A stretch of 58,554 bases of DNA, from contig JAFVBL010000031.1 in the NCBI GenBank assembly GCA_017479985.1, positions 1 to 58,554 on the forward strand, in the 5' to 3' direction. The translations under genes and the position numbers were made by a program. The notes beneath the pieces were generated by a model. It ran no database searches. It saw nothing but the letters and a program-made list of their open reading frames with translations, and was not told where the DNA came from. Below, piece by piece: positions 5,159 to 26,662 of the stretch. The stretch is from Alphaproteobacteria bacterium (lineage in GTDB: Bacteria > Pseudomonadota > Alphaproteobacteria > RF32 > CAG-239). Position 1 is the first letter of the stretch; every line of letters starts with the position of its first letter.

Positions 5159-6550
5159 TTACTTTCCTTCCAAAATTGCCTTAAACAATTCGTGTACACT
5201 CGGAATATGGTTGTGTGCATACATCGGGTCGGTCGCAAAGCGATAGACATTGTGACCGGCAAACGCCAGATTGTTCTGAATATCTCCGCCGTGTCCGATA
5301 TTCATCAGGGTGTTGTGTATGCAATATGTGCGCGGGTCAGGTATTTTACCGGTGGTGCCGTTTTCACGTGACCAGCTTGAAAATTGACATTGCGAGAGGC
5401 AACCGACACATTCCGAACGTTGTTTTTGCATTTCAATCCATTCGTCCGGTGTCAAAAAGACCAATGTTGAATCCGGCGTTTCTTTAATCATTGAGTAGCC
5501 GAGCGTGCGCTGTTCTTCAACCTTTTTCTTGTCGTCAGGACGGATATAAACCGCTTTATGCGGGGCAATCGGCAATAAGAACGTCAGCTCATTCGTTGCC
5601 GTGCCGCTATACGGAATTTCGGCCTTTTTGCGGCGCATCAGATTGCTGAGGAATTTGTTTTTAATCGCCGAAGAAAAGAAACCGGTCGGGCTGAATTTTT
5701 GTAAAATCACATCACCTTTTTGGGCGTGCATCATTAGGATTTTCCAAGCATCGCTTATCGGGCTTTCCTTGGTAATCATCGGGCGTGTGCCGAATTGAAA
5801 TGCAACATTGCCGAGTTCCGGATTATCGATATAATCCTGCCAATCGCTGAGGCTCCAAACACCGCCGGCAATAATAATCGGCAGATTTTTTAAACCGAGT
5901 TCATTTAAAACGTTGCGTAACGCTACCAATCGTTCATACGGGCGTTCCGGTGCAAGCGGATTTTCGGCGTTGGATAGGCCGTTATGACCGCCGGCGAGCC
6001 ACGGGTCTTCATAAACAACACCACCCAAATATTCGGCATAGTTTTTGAAGGCGCGTTTCCATAAGACGGACATTGCGCGTGCTGAAGATATAATCGGATA
6101 ATAATAAACATTGTGTTCTGAGGCGATTTTGCCTAAGTTATACGGTAAGCCGGCACCGCAAGTCACACCGTGAATCAATCCCTTTGCGCCGTCCAAAACG
6201 CGGGTGATTACCTCTTGCGAATCGGCCATTTCCCACAGCATATTGATATGTATACGACCGTTGCCCGCGGCAATATCGTGTGCAATTTGCGCTTGAGCAA
6301 TACCGCCTCTGATGGCATATTCCACCATTTCGCGATGGCGTTTGGCGCGGATTTTTTCGTGAAAAACTTCCGGAATAATTGTTCCTTCCAAAGAAATGTC
6401 GGTCGGACTGACCATAGAGATAGTGCCGACACCGCCTTCTTTTGCCCACGAACCGGAACTTTTGCCGTCCGTACCGTTTATGCCTTTTCCACCCTCAATC
6501 AACGGATAGACCATTGCTCCCGATATATTGATTTTTCTCAATGCCTTCAT
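5159..6550 (-). CDS. Nitronate monooxygenase / 2-nitropropane dioxygenase-family flavin oxidoreductase with Fe-S motif
   Basis: PLIEGGKG, GAGLP, EDPWLAGGHNG, QFGTR and C-terminal CxxCxxxC. Confidence 0.88.
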   Translation of the reverse strand: MKALRKINISGAMVYPLIEGGKGINGTDGKSSGSWAKEGGVGTISMVSPTDISLEGTIIPEVFHEKIRAKRHREMVEYAIRGGIAQAQIAHDIAAGNGRIHINMLWEMADSQEVITRVLDGAKGLIHGVTCGAGLPYNLGKIASEHNVYYYPIISSARAMSVLWKRAFKNYAEYLGGVVYEDPWLAGGHNGLSNAENPLAPERPYERLVALRNVLNELGLKNLPIIIAGGVWSLSDWQDYIDNPELGNVAFQFGTRPMITKESPISDAWKILMMHAQKGDVILQKFSPTGFFSSAIKNKFLSNLMRRKKAEIPYSGTATNELTFLLPIAPHKAVYIRPDDKKKVEEQRTLGYSMIKETPDSTLVFLTPDEWIEMQKQRSECVGCLSQCQFSSWSRENGTTGKIPDPRTYCIHNTLMNIGHGGDIQNNLAFAGHNVYRFATDPMYAHNHIPSVHELFKAILEGK

Positions 6551-6708
6551 TTTTTGCCTCTCTTGTTTTGTTCACATTCTGTTATTTTCCGAATCGTGTC
6601 GGAATCATATACAGACAATATAATCATTTTTACACGTTTGAAAAGTAGGCACTTTTTCGGGGCTTAGTTTCCTTTAAGGAACTGTTGGGGCAGGTTTTGC
6701 TTTTTTGC

Positions 6709-6736
6709 TTGCAATTTATAAGGTTTGTTTTAATAT
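6709..6736 (+). promoter_or_regulatory. Putative sigma70 promoter of cassette copy 1
   Basis: TTGCAA-N16-TAATAT. Identical in copy 2, and TTGAAT-N16-TATCAT at the equivalent position in copy 3. Confidence 0.6.
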
Positions 6737-6743
6737 AACATTT

Positions 6744-6925
6744 GCCGGCGAGAGGTCGTCGGCGGAGTGTCACAACTCCACGAATAAAAAAATACTCCTC
6801 TGTTGGTGGGGAGCCGGCGGAATATATTGAATACGCCGGACTGATTATTCGCAGTTGTGAACTCCCGACCACTTTTTCGAGTGGTCGCTTTTGTTTTAAT
6901 TTAACAAATTAAGGAGTTCTGAACG
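6744..6925 (+). ncRNA. Structured leader / C4-CI-like antisense RNA candidate, copy 1
   Basis: Hairpins at 6744-6763 and 6764-6779. Cloverleaf 6804-6871 with arms CCGGCG/CGCCGG and ACTG/CAGT. Terminator hairpin 6866-6887 plus T tract. Confidence 0.7.
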
Positions 6926-7159
6926 ATGATAAACAACACAATAACCTTCAAACAACAAAATCTGAAAGAAATCGGACACGCATTATGGTTGGCACGACAG
7001 GAAAAACCTCTGTTTATCTATCAGGTTGCCAAACGCGCAAGAGTACCGATTGATATGATTGACGTAATGGAATTGGGGAAAGCCGTTGATGAATATAATC
7101 TGCGGAAATTACTCAAATTTTATGGTAAAAAAATGCGCATCGTGTTTGAAGAAAAGTGA
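6926..7159 (+). CDS. Small Xre/Cro-like helix-turn-helix protein, copy 1
   Basis: IGHALWLARQEK-x-IYQVAKRARVP-x-IDVMELGK fits the Xre HTH pattern. AAGGAG RBS. Paralogs at 19992 and 24223. Confidence 0.8.
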   Translation: MINNTITFKQQNLKEIGHALWLARQEKPLFIYQVAKRARVPIDMIDVMELGKAVDEYNLRKLLKFYGKKMRIVFEEK

Positions 7160-7173
7160 CTTAGATGCAATAT

Positions 7174-8628
7174 TTATTCGCTCAGTTTAAACCAATCCGA
7201 CGGAATGCCGTTGACAATCAGAAAGGCGATTAAAAGACAGATATAAGCATAAATTTGCAGCATACTTAAAATATTTTCATACTTTTTGTTCGGTAAATGC
7301 GGCGCTAAGATATGCAGGAGTTTATTGACGCCGCTGATGCCGAGTATTATCAGTATGAATTGTATGAAAACGCCGCTGTTTTGCAGTTGTTCTTTAAATG
7401 CAGCGGCTATTTTATGCAAAAACGTGAAAAACACCAACAAAAAAGCCAGAAAACCGTTGAGCGCATAATATTTGATTTTATCAAATTGCTCTTTTTCAAT
7501 TTTTTTGCGGCGCAAGTTTTCCGTAACAAGTTTTTTAACTTCAAGACCGCGGACGGTTTGCGGTTCTTCCTGTTGTTTTTTATAATTATCAACTTGGATT
7601 TTGAACTTTTCCGCCGCAATGCACAGACCGCAGCCCTTCGGCGTGAAATAGACGTGATTCTTATCTTTTTTACAACGTTTGTAATGGTTGAGCAAATAAT
7701 CAAGATGAGCTTGCCATTCAAGCGCAGTCGGTCGTTCTTTGTCTTTGGCGAACGCACGTTCAAACAGGTTCATCGTTTCTTTGTCAAGATAGTCGTGAAT
7801 GCTGTACGGGTGCGGACGCTGATACGAATCCGGCCAAAAACCGTAGGCGTAATGATAGCCGGCAATGCGCTCTTGTATGGAAAGCATATCTTCTTTTTTG
7901 ACCGGCGTGCCCGAAAACGGATGTATGCCGTCATTCAACAGTTTGAAAATAATCACCGCCAACGCAAATTTATCTTGTTCTTCGCCCATTTCTTCGCAGG
8001 TCTGATTCATTCCTTCCGGATAAATATATTCTTCGCTGACAAACTCTGCGGGATAACGTGCGCCGTTTTCACCTTTAATCGAAAAGCCGTCACAGTCAAA
8101 TGCCACCACCAACTGATTTTGTTTGTATATCGAAACGTTGGAAGGTTTCAAATCCACAATGTAGTGTCCGCAAGCGTGCAAGGCCGCAACAACGGATGTA
8201 ATATTATAGGCGGCAAAAACACGGTCGAGATAGCGTTCGCTCAGACCGAGTTTGCGTCGTACGGCTTTTTGAATCAGATAATCAAGCGAAATGGCTTCAG
8301 TTGTATCAATTAGCGGCATAAGATAACCGACACAAAAGCCTTGGGTATCTTCCAAAAGAGCCGTCGGCCAAGCAATTTGGTGATATTCTTTTTCCTTGTA
8401 GGTAATGGTCGGAATATTCGGACGATTGTGAAGCATTGCCTCCAATTTTTGCCGGTTTGTGCCGCTGCGTTCTTTGGTATGAAAGATTTTTGCCACACTG
8501 TTCGGGTGGGTTAAATCACGATAGATTTTACCTGCAGCGCCGCCTTTGTTGAGCAATTCGCCCAAAAGAACGCGTTCGTTATGACCGTCGGGATAAAGCG
8601 CCAAACATAACATACGTGCTTCTGCCAT
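7174..8628 (-). CDS. Ser/Thr protein kinase with C-terminal TM helices (YegI-like, TerY-P triad)
   Basis: GGAAGKIY, VAKIF, IAWP, GYLMP, DLKPSN, DCDGF, DKFALAV, HPFSG. Start ATG 8628 overlaps the phosphatase stop (TAATG). Confidence 0.88.
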   Translation of the reverse strand: MAEARMLCLALYPDGHNERVLLGELLNKGGAAGKIYRDLTHPNSVAKIFHTKERSGTNRQKLEAMLHNRPNIPTITYKEKEYHQIAWPTALLEDTQGFCVGYLMPLIDTTEAISLDYLIQKAVRRKLGLSERYLDRVFAAYNITSVVAALHACGHYIVDLKPSNVSIYKQNQLVVAFDCDGFSIKGENGARYPAEFVSEEYIYPEGMNQTCEEMGEEQDKFALAVIIFKLLNDGIHPFSGTPVKKEDMLSIQERIAGYHYAYGFWPDSYQRPHPYSIHDYLDKETMNLFERAFAKDKERPTALEWQAHLDYLLNHYKRCKKDKNHVYFTPKGCGLCIAAEKFKIQVDNYKKQQEEPQTVRGLEVKKLVTENLRRKKIEKEQFDKIKYYALNGFLAFLLVFFTFLHKIAAAFKEQLQNSGVFIQFILIILGISGVNKLLHILAPHLPNKKYENILSMLQIYAYICLLIAFLIVNGIPSDWFKLSE

Positions 8629-9377
8629 TATACCTCCGCCCATAAAATAGTTTTATCATCTGCATTGAGCCGTTGCGCGCGTGCGTCGTTCAATGTATTG
8701 TTTAAGGCGCGCAGGGCATATGTTTTGTATTTTTCGCGTTCCAGATATTCTACAACCGGAATAAAAAATTTGCGCTGGATTTTGAAAAAGTCGTCCGAAA
8801 AGACAAAGCCGGTTACACCGTCGCTCATCAACATAATGCGATTGATATTTTCAAACGGTTTAAAACGCAGACATTCTTTCCATTCGGGCATTGTGTAAAA
8901 ATAGGTCTCGCACGAAAATGTGCCGTTTTCCGGTTCCGAAATTAAAATATTATCGTAATCACCGGAATTAAATGCAATGCCGGCGCCGTCACCGATGTGG
9001 AAAAAAATGCCTCTGCCGTTGCAATAAAAAAAGCCGACGACGGTTGCCGAAAAATGGCATAAATCCGCCTCTGATTTGCTTTTGTTGTAACGGTGAAAGA
9101 GCAATTTTTGCCGTGCTGTTTCAATGGCGTTTTTGATATCGCGGCGAATGGTTTTATGGTTGGAACGTATGAGTAAATCACATAAGGTTCGGCATATTGT
9201 TTTTGCGCCGATTTGGCCGTAACACGCCGAGCCGGCGCCGTCCGAAACAATGCCCACAAGTTTATTTTTATACCGCTTGCTGCAACAATAATCCTGACAC
9301 GGCATATTGTTTGCCTTATGTAAGGCACCGCGTTGCGAAGTGGCTAAAACCCGTATATGTTCGGATGTTTTCGGCAT
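8628..9377 (-). CDS. PP2C-family Ser/Thr phosphatase (YegK-like, TerY-P triad)
   Basis: GALH..PCQD, VSDGAGSA, HIGDG, MSDG and DDKT motifs. Confidence 0.92.
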   Translation of the reverse strand: MPKTSEHIRVLATSQRGALHKANNMPCQDYCCSKRYKNKLVGIVSDGAGSACYGQIGAKTICRTLCDLLIRSNHKTIRRDIKNAIETARQKLLFHRYNKSKSEADLCHFSATVVGFFYCNGRGIFFHIGDGAGIAFNSGDYDNILISEPENGTFSCETYFYTMPEWKECLRFKPFENINRIMLMSDGVTGFVFSDDFFKIQRKFFIPVVEYLEREKYKTYALRALNNTLNDARAQRLNADDKTILWAEV

Positions 9378-9381
9378 AGAC

Positions 9382-10062
9382 TTATTTCTCGTTCCATTCG
9401 GTTATGTCGTCAAGATATTTGTTGGCGTTCGGGGCGGCTTTGGAAATACACGAAACACTGCGGCTGAGCCAGAGGAAAAATTCGGTGAATTTTAAGCCGG
9501 TCAAACGTTTTGGCGGCAAAACGGAAAACTTTGCGAGTTTTTCCAAGTTTGCACCCTGTGTACCGATGGCGTGAATGACGACTTTTTTGTTTTTTTGCGC
9601 ATAACGGCAGAGTTCTGCCGAATCTTCCCAGCCGTAATCGGTCGGTTCGCCGTCGCTGATGAGGAAAATCCACGGACGTTTTGAGGTTACGCCGCAACTG
9701 TCATACAAGCATTTTTGTTCGTCAATTTTTTGCAAAGCCGTTTCCATTGCTTTGCCGAGCGGTGTTAAACCGCCTGCTTCCATAACGGGAGCCTCAAAGT
9801 TCATCGCGTCTATCCAATCAGATTCGATTTTTACCTCGTCTTTGCCGAAGGCTTTGATAATCAGCAGCTGTACACGTGAGCTGGCGTCAATGTCATCTTT
9901 GAGTTCTTTTTCGAGTGCGGCCAATCCGGCATTCAACTGTTTAATCGGTTCACCGCGCATCGAGCCGGAGCAATCCAACACCAACACGCACGGTGTACGT
10001 TCGTTTGCATTATCGGCAAATTCAACGTAAGGAATCCGTTCTATTGTATTTTGTTCAGTCAT
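9382..10062 (-). CDS. TerY-like von Willebrand factor A domain protein (YegL-like)
   Basis: LVLDCSGSM MIDAS motif, GGLTPLG, RPWIFLISDGEPTD and FTEFFLWLSRS. Confidence 0.92.
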   Translation of the reverse strand: MTEQNTIERIPYVEFADNANERTPCVLVLDCSGSMRGEPIKQLNAGLAALEKELKDDIDASSRVQLLIIKAFGKDEVKIESDWIDAMNFEAPVMEAGGLTPLGKAMETALQKIDEQKCLYDSCGVTSKRPWIFLISDGEPTDYGWEDSAELCRYAQKNKKVVIHAIGTQGANLEKLAKFSVLPPKRLTGLKFTEFFLWLSRSVSCISKAAPNANKYLDDITEWNEK

Positions 10063-10302
10063 TTGCACTCTCCTGAGGGTGCGGATATTGATGCGGAAAT
10101 CCGCTGCCCTCTACCGGATACGGTGCCGAATAGCGTCCGCAGGCACAAAGTGATGCAAAAACAACAAAGCAAATGCAACACAATAAAATTATTTTAAGAA
10201 AATGTTTCATTTATTAACCTTTTTTTGGAATCTTGATATTATATCTAATCTAACGGATAAAAGTTAAAGATAGTTTATTTTTTTGCAGAAAGTTGTAAAC
10301 GA

Positions 10303-19767: not shown

Positions 19768-20216
19768 TTTTTGCTTGCAATTTATAAGGTTTGTTTTAAT
19801 ATAACCTTTGCCGGCGAGAGGTCGTCGGCGGAGTATCACAGCTCCTCGTATTAAATAAACTCCTCTATTGGTGGGGAGCCGGCGGAATATATTGAATACG
19901 CCGGACTGCTTATACGACAGTTGTGAACTCCCGACCACTTTTTCGAGTGGTCGCTTTTGTTTTGATTTAACAAATTAAGGAGTTCTGAACGATGATAAAC
20001 AACACAATAACCTTCAAACAGCAAAATCTGAAAGAAATCGGACACGCATTATGGCTGGCACGACAGGAAAAACATCTGTTTATCTATCAGGTTGCCAAAC
20101 GCGCAAGAGTACCGATTGATATGATTGACGTAATGGAATTGGGGAAAGCCGTTGATGAATACAATCTGCGGAAATTGCTCAAATTCTACGGCAAAAAAAT
20201 GCACATCGTGTTTGAA
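19768..20216 (+). repeat. Dispersed promoter-leader RNA-HTH cassette, copy 2
   Basis: Near-identical to copy 1. Begins 7 bp after the lnt stop codon. Confidence 0.95.
19810..19991 (+). ncRNA. Structured leader / C4-CI-like antisense RNA candidate, copy 2
   Basis: Same stems as copy 1. Differences fall in loops and linkers or keep pairing (ACTCC to GCTCC gives a U-G pair). Confidence 0.7.
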
Positions 20217-20219
20217 TAA
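19992..20219 (+). CDS. Small Xre/Cro-like HTH protein, copy 2
   Basis: 73 of 75 residues identical to copy 1. Confidence 0.8.
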   Translation: MINNTITFKQQNLKEIGHALWLARQEKHLFIYQVAKRARVPIDMIDVMELGKAVDEYNLRKLLKFYGKKMHIVFE

Positions 20220-23980: not shown

Positions 23981-24223
23981 TTAAGTTAAATTTTCATCAA
24001 AAACAATGCGCATTTTTCTGCCGTAAAATTCGGTTAGACGGCGTAATGCGGTGTGTTGAATAAATTTGCCGATTTCCATACCTTCAATCACTCGTGCCGG
24101 CAGATTGGTCCGATAGGCAACAGTGCGTAAATACATTCTTTTTTCGGTACGTAATTTCCATAATTCTGCCCCGATGGCACATAATGTTTCTTTATCCATA
24201 TAACAAGATTTAATTTTGGTCAT
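23981..24223 (-). CDS. Small Xre/Cro-like HTH protein, copy 3 (divergent)
   Basis: About 40% identical to copy 1 by manual alignment. Shares IG..LW..R.EK, VA.R..P..I..ME.GK and FYG.KMRIVF. Confidence 0.8.
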   Translation of the reverse strand: MTKIKSCYMDKETLCAIGAELWKLRTEKRMYLRTVAYRTNLPARVIEGMEIGKFIQHTALRRLTEFYGRKMRIVFDENLT

Positions 24224-24403
24224 TTTCAGAACTCCTTAATTTGTTAAATTAAAACAAAAACGACCACTCAAAAAGCGGTCGGGAGTTCCTAACTGCGAAT
24301 AATCAGTCCGGCGTATTCAATATATTCCGCCGGCTCCCCACCAACAGAGGAGTTAATTTTGTTTGCGGAGTTGTGACACTCCGCCGGCGGCCTCTTATCG
24401 GTA
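24224..24403 (-). ncRNA. Structured leader / C4-CI-like antisense RNA candidate, copy 3
   Basis: Reverse complement reads ...GGAGTGTCACAACTCC...CTCCTCTGTTGGTGGGGAGCCGGCGGAATATATTGAATACGCCGGACTGATTATTCGCAGTTAGGAACTCCCGACC...AAGGAGTTCTGAAAATG. Confidence 0.7.
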
Positions 24404-24409
24404 AAAATT

Positions 24410-24437
24410 ATGATATACAAACTATCGTAAAATTCAA
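24410..24437 (-). promoter_or_regulatory. Putative sigma70 promoter of cassette copy 3
   Basis: TTGAAT-N16-TATCAT on the minus strand, at the same position as in copies 1 and 2. Confidence 0.6.
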
Positions 24438-24467
24438 GTTAAATTTAGGCAAAATAAAAAATTGGTG

Positions 24468-25462: not shown

Positions 25463-26662
25463 TTAATTTGCTTTCAAAACGGTTTCTTTCGGAACAATAA
25501 TGTAATATTTGCCGGCAGAATTCATTTTTCCGGCGTATTTTAAGGCCTCTTCACCGTGTCCCCAAAAATAATCACCGCGTACCACACCTTTTATGGCACT
25601 TCCGATATCTTGAGCAAACACAATTTTACGAATACTGCGTTTATCCGGACCGGTTGTGTCCAGCCATAGCATTGAACCGAGCGGAATATAGCGCGTATCA
25701 ACCGCCATACTGCGTCCGGCAGTCAGTGAAATACCGAAAGCTCCGACCGGACCGTCGGCATTGGTGATACGCTGAAAAATAAAACGGTCGTTTTCACGCA
25801 TTAAATCTTCGGCTTTGTCAGGGTTTGCGCGTAACCATTCACGAATTTTAGGCATTGAAGAATCGCCGGATTTTATGTATCCTTTTGCAATCAAAATACT
25901 GCCGATTCCTTTAAATTTATGCCCGTTGCTGTCGGCAAAACCGATACGGACTTGCGAACCGTCGTCCATTTGCGCAACGGCAGAGCCTTGAATCTGCATA
26001 AAGTGAATATCCACCAAATCGTCGCCCCACATCAATACCGGTGCTTGAACACCGTTATTTTCAATATCACGGCGGTTATAATAAGGTATAAATTTGCCGT
26101 TTTCGACTCGTCCGACCAAGCGGGTGTTCGGCAATTCGGCATCAAAATCACGCAGATTTATCTCAATTAAGTCACTCGGTTTACCGTAAACGGGATATTT
26201 ATATTTGCCGCTTTTGTTGTATGAGGCACGTATAACGGCTTCGTAGTATGAGGTAAATTTGCCGTCGGCATTGGTGCTGTCGGAAATTGCATAAGGCTTA
26301 AATTCGGCCTCCATAAATTTTTTCATTTCTGCTGCCGTTTTGATGTTTTTTGCCGTGAATTTTTTGCATTTTTCCTGCAAATCCGTTGCTTTGATTTGTA
26401 TAACATCGGCGGAAAAATAAGCGTTTTTGCTTTTTTGGATTTGGCTGCAGTTTTTTGCAAAAACAGGAATAACAGCGGCAAAGTCTTCGTTGTTCCAATC
26501 GGGTAAATTAGAAAAAGATACGGGCTGTAACCGTAAATCACCGCTGATTTCCGGTGTTTGAGTATCTTTTTGACACGCTGACAGACCGCAAATCAATAAG
26601 GCACATATAAATTTAAGCACTCTTTTTTGTTGATACCAAAAGCCAATTTTTGTTTTTTGCAT
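25463..26662 (-). CDS. mltA: Membrane-bound lytic murein transglycosylase A
   Basis: Lipobox LSAC, FTSYYE, FMQIQGS, AQDIGSAIKG and RGDYFWG. Start uncertain. Confidence 0.93.
   Translation of the reverse strand: MQKTKIGFWYQQKRVLKFICALLICGLSACQKDTQTPEISGDLRLQPVSFSNLPDWNNEDFAAVIPVFAKNCSQIQKSKNAYFSADVIQIKATDLQEKCKKFTAKNIKTAAEMKKFMEAEFKPYAISDSTNADGKFTSYYEAVIRASYNKSGKYKYPVYGKPSDLIEINLRDFDAELPNTRLVGRVENGKFIPYYNRRDIENNGVQAPVLMWGDDLVDIHFMQIQGSAVAQMDDGSQVRIGFADSNGHKFKGIGSILIAKGYIKSGDSSMPKIREWLRANPDKAEDLMRENDRFIFQRITNADGPVGAFGISLTAGRSMAVDTRYIPLGSMLWLDTTGPDKRSIRKIVFAQDIGSAIKGVVRGDYFWGHGEEALKYAGKMNSAGKYYIIVPKETVLKAN

Follow-up and report, generated by a model that had tools for sequence, protein, structure and literature searches.

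A multi-copy leader RNA with compensated long-range pairing and a putative strand-sharing alternative fold upstream of small helix-turn-helix genes in gut Alphaproteobacteria

The closest published analogue of the locus described here is found in Bartonella, where pairs of a Brt RNA and a Trp helix-turn-helix (HTH) protein have been reported. According to the accessible text of the source papers, nine Brt RNAs (Brt1-9) of 194-203 nucleotides (nt) are highly expressed and genus-specific, with copy numbers of 0-34, and each lies 10-18 nt before a poorly transcribed HTH gene of the XRE type (Tu et al. 2016, PMC5387305; PMC8070961). The 3' stem-loop of Brt1 is presented there as an attenuator of trp1, the trigger is left unsettled, and action in trans is proposed, not shown (PMC8070961; PMC5387305). 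Here we analyse a cassette of similar organization in a 58,554-nt stretch (positions 1-58,554 of contig JAFVBL010000031.1, hereafter the window) of an Alphaproteobacteria bacterium (assembly GCA_017479985.1, lineage RF32; CAG-239). Positions 6700-7160 of the window form a single cassette composed of a promoter-like element, a structured leader, an intrinsic terminator, a ribosome-binding site (RBS) and a 77-codon gene for an HTH protein.

As in Bartonella, the element belongs to Alphaproteobacteria, is multi-copy and lineage-restricted, and varies in copy number between genomes; a structured RNA with a stem-loop attenuator, here a predicted one, stands directly before a small XRE-type HTH gene, some of the downstream genes are pseudogenes, and action in cis and in trans have both been proposed. 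The features of a Brt cassette, namely a multi-copy lineage-restricted leader, a promoter-like element, a terminator and a small XRE HTH gene downstream, were all found by prediction. The two systems differ in their dimensions and location: the leader studied here is ~150 nt long and its terminator lies ~30 nt before the start codon, whereas Brt RNAs measure 194-203 nt and end 10-18 nt from trp, and Brt genes cluster in a plastic 277-kb region, whereas the present copies are scattered among housekeeping genes. When our covariance model of the leader (R1) was run with filters off on B. grahamii pBGR3, which served as a Brt proxy and is said in the accessible text of PMC5387305 to carry one copy, the best score was 8.9 bits, that is, noise. 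In architecture and genetics the cassette matches Brt, as known from its descriptions, closely, with no sequence homology found to the pBGR3 proxy.

Antisense systems of phages offer a second comparison. The C4 RNAs of P1 and P7 and the CI RNA of P4 lie, like the RNA considered here, inside the leader of the operon that they control, with a complementary element upstream and partial complementarity to the RBS; the targets of C4 are a1b1 and a2b2, and those of P4 are seqA and seqC. In the accessible part of its description, the C4 system is a c4-icd-ant operon (PMC8198154). The closest Rfam family is a third one, sRNA-Xcc1 (RF02221), at sub-threshold scores: it matched 6805-6878 with 26.1 bits, against a gathering score of 53, and gave 25.5-29 bits, below 53, in 6 of 20 loci, whereas 20 loci from other genera had no match at an expect value (E) <= 1. 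The alignment spans model positions 1-87, and the leader resembles sRNA-Xcc1 in its ~9-bp (base pair) closing stem, two adjacent hairpins, short single-stranded junction and 3' tail, as well as in its position before a small gene of the same orientation; unlike sRNA-Xcc1, it has a 5' extension that pairs with the junction. As far as the accessible text of the respective reports goes, sRNA-Xcc1 is found upstream of symE in Xanthomonas integron cassettes (bioRxiv 10.1101/2025.06.18.660453), upstream of an ORF6N gene in APSE phages (PMC7313666) and in tandem arrays, beside C4 and isrK matches, in a Xylella island (PMC12189769). Separately, pBGR3 (NC_012847, L150) carries at 25880-25967 (- strand) an sRNA-Xcc1 match of 49.5 bits inside a leader of ~225 nt that runs from promoter to RBS. 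This leader precedes a gene for a YdcK-like beta-solenoid, non-HTH protein, and its RBS reads AAAGGAGTTCATTATG, with GGAGTTC in common with the cassettes studied here.

The central feature of the leader is a long-range helix, which we call fold S1. The initial annotation, made from the letters of the DNA, had proposed that AGTTGTGAACTCC (6853-6865) could pair over 13 bp with GGAGT-G-TCACAACT (6764-6777) upstream; the strings that it quoted were all correctly placed, and this pairing proved better than that of shuffled sequences and covaries across copies. For the cassette at 6700 (copy 1), the best upstream duplex has -16.9 kcal/mol against -8.6 +/- 1.9 kcal/mol for 2000 shuffles of the upstream 111 nt, only one of which reached it. 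We refer to 6853-6865 (+), the 3' strand of helices P1b and P1a, as the antisense segment, and to its partner GGAGTGTCACAACTCC (6764-6779, +), which can alternatively form a hairpin alone (H1, GGAGT/ACTCC), as the target. The target motif occurs in the window only in the three leader copies, compared with 0.03 occurrences expected. Compensated pairs are already visible within the genome of origin (TCACAACT/AGTTGTGA, TCCTAACT/AGTTAGGA and TCGAAACT/AGTTTCGA). Of 127 distinct full-length leader copies collected from the genus, 114 form every pair of the 8-bp core, 10 have a single mismatch there, 2 have two and 1 has three; the core falls into at least nine compensated sequence classes, antisense segments of which include TGTG, TTCG, TAGG, TACG, CGTT, TTTG and TGCT.

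The duplex is lengthened to ~20 bp, with interruptions, by an adjoining copy-specific helix between strand X (CGAATAA, 6781-6787, +) and strand X' (6845-6851), in which all 7 pairs are changed on both sides in each of the three alignments used (A2, A5 and A6). A regular-expression parser recovered both strands from 117 of the 127 copies and dropped 10; X' takes 68 distinct forms among these 117, and the duplex of X with its own X' averages -5.9 kcal/mol against -0.9 kcal/mol for cross-pairing, the self duplex being better in 115 copies. This copy-specific helix argues against cross-talk between copies. In A2, a structure-blind MAFFT alignment of 33 copies, 95.9% of the S1 pairs are formed versus 84.5% after shuffling, and 25 of the 40 pairs show changes on both sides. 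The other two alignments, fitted to a model built on S1, gave 95.3% versus 79.7% for 105 genus copies (A5) and 93.5% versus 69.5% for 66 copies from other genera (A6). None of 500 shuffles reached the observed value in any of the three, and slid controls stayed at 31-49%. The covariation indicates that the S1 pairing is under selection.

G-U pairs are frequent, for example at pair 36/126 in 40 of 104 copies of A5, and their abundance places the constraint on this strand's RNA. Alternatively, the repeats might function at the DNA level, for example as sites of recombination or as mobile-element ends. Cassettes that are multi-copy, scattered, sometimes tandem and often at contig ends (4 of nine matches in the assembly of origin, or 5 of nine when 'near contig ends' is counted loosely) would suit such a role; it is nevertheless extremely improbable, because G-U pairs become C-A mismatches on the other strand, the promoter, terminator and RBS follow one another in the right order, and no terminal inverted repeats were seen in the alignments.

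Several hairpins accompany the long-range helix, all on the + strand. P0, the 5' hairpin (GCCGGCGA/TCGTCGGC, 6744-6763), shows changes on both sides in 7 of 8 pairs of A2 and is 98.0% paired in A5 and 99.2% in A6. P2 (6794-6813) joins ACUCCUC to GGGGAG, a strand that it shares with the stem of the rival cloverleaf discussed below. The initial annotation had offered ACTCCTC (6794-6800) either GGGGAG or the RBS as partner; pairing with GGGGAG is sustained by 98.0% paired positions in A2 and by covariation outside the genus (pair 72/95 of A6: CG 40, UA 15, UG 10), but it shows no both-side change within the genus. P3 (CCGGCG/CGCCGG, 6814-6839) has changes on both sides in 6 of 6 pairs. Its 14-nt loop GAATATATTGAATA (6820-6833) is invariant in the seven full-length copies of the genome of origin and near-invariant in the genus. 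The loop contains the palindrome AATATATT, so that loop-loop dimers between RNAs could in principle form; in other genera ATA...CGAATAA is retained, and the middle of the loop has given way to an additional apical hairpin. The last hairpin, P4 of the cloverleaf (ACTG...CAGT, 6840-6855), encloses X' (TTATTCG, 6845-6851). Its pairs are invariant and as such uninformative, and where the fourth one varies it fits the long-range helix, not P4.

The second fold, S2, is a cloverleaf at 6805-6870 (+) closed by GGTGGGGAG (6805-6813) with CTCCCGACC (6862-6870), and it coincides with the sub-threshold sRNA-Xcc1 match. The closure had been recognized in the initial annotation, and we can retain it in part: the varying pairs support the stem, but it contains a G.G mismatch and its five inner pairs are near-invariant and hence uninformative. 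The seventh pair of the stem is formed in 80 of 104 genus copies versus a shuffle mean of 60.6, a count reached by none of 5000 shuffles, and outside the genus the sixth pair reads GC in 46 cases, AU in 14, GU in 4 and otherwise in 1. The most telling position is the first G of GGGGAG, at 6808, which pairs with a C of CUCCUC (C6800) in S1 or with a C of CUCCCC (C6867) in S2; where it is A, both partners are U. In the 66 copies from other genera, the P2 partner, this base and the closing partner read C/G/C in 38, U/A/U in 14 and U/G/C in 8, the rarer triples being C/G/U (2), U/G/U (2) and U/A/C (1), and one copy has a gap there; copies with A were found in 5 genomes belonging to 4 genera. The corresponding three sites read CUUCUG, CCAGAAG and CUUCUGG in a distant relative from another family. 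Covariation of this base with each of the two rival partners suggests that both helices are maintained although they cannot coexist, which would be the mark of a switch.

The terminator is where the two folds would have different consequences. As the initial annotation had noted, a hairpin at 6866-6887 precedes a T tract; the terminator scan recovered it, and a run of at least four T follows the hairpin in all 127 copies. The complete intrinsic terminator (CGACCACT/AGTGGTCG and T tract, 6866-6897, +) is conserved, and its 5' strand overlaps the 3' strand of the closing stem of the cloverleaf. Folds were compared in 105 of the 127 copies, 22 having been dropped by the regular-expression parser. 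The unconstrained minimum free energy structure of the terminated transcript is S1 in 102 of them, and forcing the cloverleaf stem gave an S2 that is on average 13.1 kcal/mol worse than S1. Under this constraint the terminator region retained 4.4 pairs instead of 8.6, and 96 of the 105 copies had fewer pairs there.

The antisense segment had further been said to match the RBS, GGAGTTCTGAAC (6913-6924), at 10 of 12 positions; the match is there, but it shows no covariation in the genus. The Shine-Dalgarno (SD) sequence GGAGTTC (6913-6919, +) is complementary to GAACTCC (6859-6865), and GGAGTT is present in 97 of the 102 copies with a start codon that the regular-expression parser recovered (25 of the 127 were dropped). 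What is constant across copies is only GGAGUU(C)/(G)AACUCC, that is, 6-7 bp. For the 12-pair helix, 77.2% of the pairs are formed versus 77.0% after shuffling, and 225 of 500 shuffles reach the observed value; only 6 of 102 copies allow both bases of the class-defining dinucleotide to pair with the RBS, and extending the SD pairing 5' of GGAG gave no pattern. Predicted folds of the read-through RNA of copy 1 are near equal in energy with the SD masked (-73.3 kcal/mol) or free (-72.9 kcal/mol), and the predicted probability of pairing between SD and antisense segment averages 0.37 across copies with a start codon. Pairing of the SD with the antisense segment is thus thermodynamically plausible in these models. 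Distant relatives lend it some support, through few events: one has CUUCC with an SD that reads GGAAG, another AACUUCUGG with CCAGAAGUU downstream, and two copies from another family (L214 and L219, genome G060) lack the terminator and have a CUCCC box near the SD, with GGGAG following 10-11 nt after the box. The expression platform thus varies, the terminator being present in 127 of 127 genus copies. The products of the genes downstream of these two leaders begin with MNRTQKGSITVE.

The gene behind the leader encodes a 77-amino-acid (aa) XRE-type HTH protein (6926-7159, +), as judged from Pfam, profile and AlphaFold2 evidence. Pfam HTH_25 was matched by 19 of 26 aligned family members, the best solved relative of the HTH profile is the antitoxin HigA (6af3, E 2.2e-6), and the AlphaFold2 model has four helices with a pLDDT (predicted local distance difference test) of 87.3. 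A single-sequence search returned 8 clusters of homologues and a profile search 123; the organism names among the best 120 of these 123 are all those of uncultured Alphaproteobacteria bins, with no Bartonella name among them. A tblastn search of plasmids with the HTH protein of window copy 3 gave no match at E <= 1.

By BLAST, the leader was found in 25 of 36 other genomes of the genus, and 24 genomes from other families gave one marginal match. The covariance model detected it in 39 of 50 genus genomes and, in a sample at the level of the order, in 110 of 151 genomes, which represent 19 of 20 genera; a single genome had as many as 21 matches, and the sample yielded roughly 550 in all. In other alphaproteobacterial families, weak matches occurred in 5 of 150 genomes. 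Enough flanking DNA for judging the downstream gene is available for 118 of the 127 genus copies. HTH similarity lies directly downstream in 108 of these (91 intact, 11 truncated where the DNA ends, 6 disrupted), 7 leaders have no open reading frame (ORF) of their own, and 3 have no HTH nearby. The leader is coupled to the HTH gene. Distant relatives have other first ORFs downstream, among them those for a 494-aa and a 138-aa protein. Three of the seven leaders without an ORF stand in leader-leader tandems ~230 nt apart (L039:1496-1927, L078 and L082; genomes G008 and G006), in which the first leader ends in a terminator without an ORF and the second is followed by an HTH gene of its own, an arrangement that resembles the tandem sRNA-Xcc1 arrays reported in the Xylella island.

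These leaders without an ORF would fit a terminated leader that acts chiefly as a small RNA in trans, as proposed for Brt1, with targets in other mRNAs and the HTH gene as a leaky passenger. The near-invariant, unpaired P3 loop likewise suggests an outside partner, and the Brt1 authors, in the accessible text, propose trans action with pull-down data described as unpublished (PMC8070961). We nonetheless regard this as very unlikely here, given that the HTH frame is kept directly downstream in 108 of 118 copies, that a longer hairpin replaces the P3 loop in other genera and that no target was identified.

Taken together, these observations lead us to favor, with a probability of roughly 60%, a leader that acts in cis through several folds: S1 with the terminator as the default, S2 for read-through, and masking of the SD. 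Brt1, whose 3' stem-loop is described as an attenuator of trp1, offers a published precedent. Transcription would most likely start near 6742, after the promoter-like TTGCAA, 16-nt spacer and TAATAT (6709-6736, +). This candidate promoter is proposed on the basis of conservation, as CTTGCA and TAATAT recur at the same spacing in the alignment of 5 of the 7 copies of the genome of origin that extend that far; it scores 8 of 12 and so falls below listing in the consensus scan. In the ground state S1, 6845-6865 would pair with 6764-6787, and the ~20-bp interrupted helix would close a junction with P2 and P3. The terminator at 6866-6897 could then form, which would leave a stable transcript of ~150 nt as the main product and the HTH gene mostly silent. 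S2 would re-pair GGGGAG with CUCCC(C), freeing the target, the antisense segment and ACUCCUC, and, by taking bases from the foot of the terminator, would allow read-through; any input that favors the cloverleaf would weaken the terminator. In the read-through RNA, GAACUCC may mask the SD GGAGUUC instead. Selection on both S1 and the shared-strand alternative is supported by the comparison of copies, and we infer that switching between S1 and S2 would set termination and translation.

Several points weigh against this proposal. According to the energy models, S2 is ~13 kcal/mol less stable than S1 and would need a trigger. Its closing stem is unpaired at the seventh position in 24 of 104 genus copies, and within the genus its five inner pairs and P4 are invariant and carry no information. 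The A variants of the triple covariation amount to few independent events, A5 and A6 lean towards the fold on which their model was built, and the case for SD masking consists of predicted thermodynamics and constant bases alone.

The logic put forward by the initial annotation was that of C4 and CI. Spelled out for this family, a cloverleaf of ~70-90 nt would be cut from the leader, for example by RNase P, and would silence the HTH gene by binding nascent transcripts of its own or same-class copies, both at the upstream target and at the RBS, with the class dinucleotides as specificity groups. Part of this logic survives in the cis-acting model, as the upstream pairing is selected, the rival cloverleaf and the terminator share strands, and CUCC can mask the SD in the predicted ensemble. 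As a mechanism in its own right we consider it unlikely. In its favor, the cloverleaf has the layout of sRNA-Xcc1, whose sub-threshold matches in the window and in 6 of 20 loci cover one and the same segment; in the accessible reports this family precedes symE and an ORF6N gene and neighbors C4 and isrK matches in Xylella. When 6804-6896 was freed of its 5' part, GGGAG-CUCCC pairing around P3 was predicted. The discrete compensated classes recall the difference between the C4 RNAs of P1 and P7, and three copies, including copy 3 of the window, combine the target of one class with the antisense segment of another. The seven leaders without an ORF, three of them in tandems, and the downstream elements of distant relatives that track the antisense box (GGAAG/CUUCC and CCAGAAGUU/AACUUCUGG) would also agree with it. 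However, the pairing is the intramolecular ground state, its X/X' extension is copy-specific, and within the genus the RBS does not covary with the class bases. No match to C4 (RF01695) was obtained at E <= 10 in positions 6600-7000 of the window or in 20 loci, ARAGORN found no tRNA-like gene in its tRNA/tmRNA scan, and ACCA after the stem, present in 19 of the 91 rows tallied from 104 copies, is a minority feature; CCA is not conserved, the controlled gene is an XRE HTH gene, and the surroundings of copies 2 and 3 are not those of a phage. A search of the genome of origin for un-bulged 13-nt targets of three classes gave exact matches only on the opposite strand of antisense segments, and thus no such target on the transcribed strand outside the leaders.

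A self-addressed circuit is a more speculative and quite unlikely possibility. Released from its 5' partner through processing or co-transcriptional trapping, the cloverleaf half would recognize transcripts being made at its own locus, by their target hairpin and copy-specific X strand, and more weakly those of same-class loci, flipping them between terminating, read-through and SD-masked folds. If so, the roughly ten dinucleotide classes would be immunity-like specificity groups, as between P1 and P7, and a genome of 1.5 Mb could run up to ~20 insulated switches, each made of an RNA and an HTH protein.

The window holds three cassette copies, at 6700 (+), 19768 (+) and 24446 (-), and the assembly of origin (1.18 Mb in 43 contigs, 83% complete) nine leader matches by BLAST, of which 7 are full-length by the covariance model and 2 are partial. 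Copy 2 (19808-20219, +) consists of a leader at 19808-19937, with a covariance-model score of 132.2 bits, and a 75-aa HTH gene at 19992-20219. Copy 3 (23981-24404, -) has its leader at 24404-24276, with 108.8 bits, the lowest score among the copies of this genome, and an intact 80-aa HTH frame at 24223-23981. In copy 3, the upstream half disagrees with the class of its own antisense segment, with 2 mismatches in the 8-bp core. It looks like a hybrid (24276-24446, -), whose upstream half has a target of the CACA class and a diverged X strand, while its downstream half combines a TAGG-class antisense segment with an X' shared with copies 1 and 5. Recombination or decay could each explain this copy, or it may be under the control of other copies. 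Two lone motifs lie outside the nine recognized copies of this genome (G000), a target-like GGAGTGTGAGAACTCC at C21:1367-1382 (-) and a P3-loop-like GAATATATCGAATA at C40:16154-16167 (-), and they may belong to diverged relatives.

Next to copies 2 and 3 of the window, the genes checked (lnt, ruvA, ruvB, MltA-like, Smr and TerB-like) are all of the housekeeping kind and none is a phage gene; the region is not a prophage. A search of sequencing runs for positions 6500-7400 of the window returned four DNA runs, all from one study, and no RNA run. Downstream of copy 1 and convergent with it, three genes occupy 7174-10068 (-); judged by eye, their translations resemble a Ser/Thr protein kinase with a membrane tail, a PP2C-type phosphatase and a von Willebrand A domain protein.

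The leader is a widespread folded RNA of small-genome gut Alphaproteobacteria that is captured by no Rfam family, and at gathering thresholds no Rfam match was found anywhere in the window. In the accessible portions of the literature on Brt1/Bartonella/Trp1 and on sRNA-Xcc1, the supplements of which may hold predicted Brt structures, we found neither a covariation-based structure nor a description of the class in gut Alphaproteobacteria. The present analysis contributes the self-pairing classes with their compensated changes, the covariation of a shared strand and the close association with HTH genes. In a whole family of Alphaproteobacteria with small genomes, from gut and rumen, few structured elements are as common as this leader. 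Its presumed counterpart, Brt/Trp, controls a major adhesin in Bartonella, without an established mechanism in the accessible text of its papers. Our covariation-backed model comprises a long-range self-complementary helix, a putative strand-sharing alternative fold and expression platforms, terminator or putative SD masking, that can stand in for one another. It allows a direct test of the idea that Brt, sRNA-Xcc1 and C4 RNAs work by a common logic, and it says which bases matter for finding the trigger.

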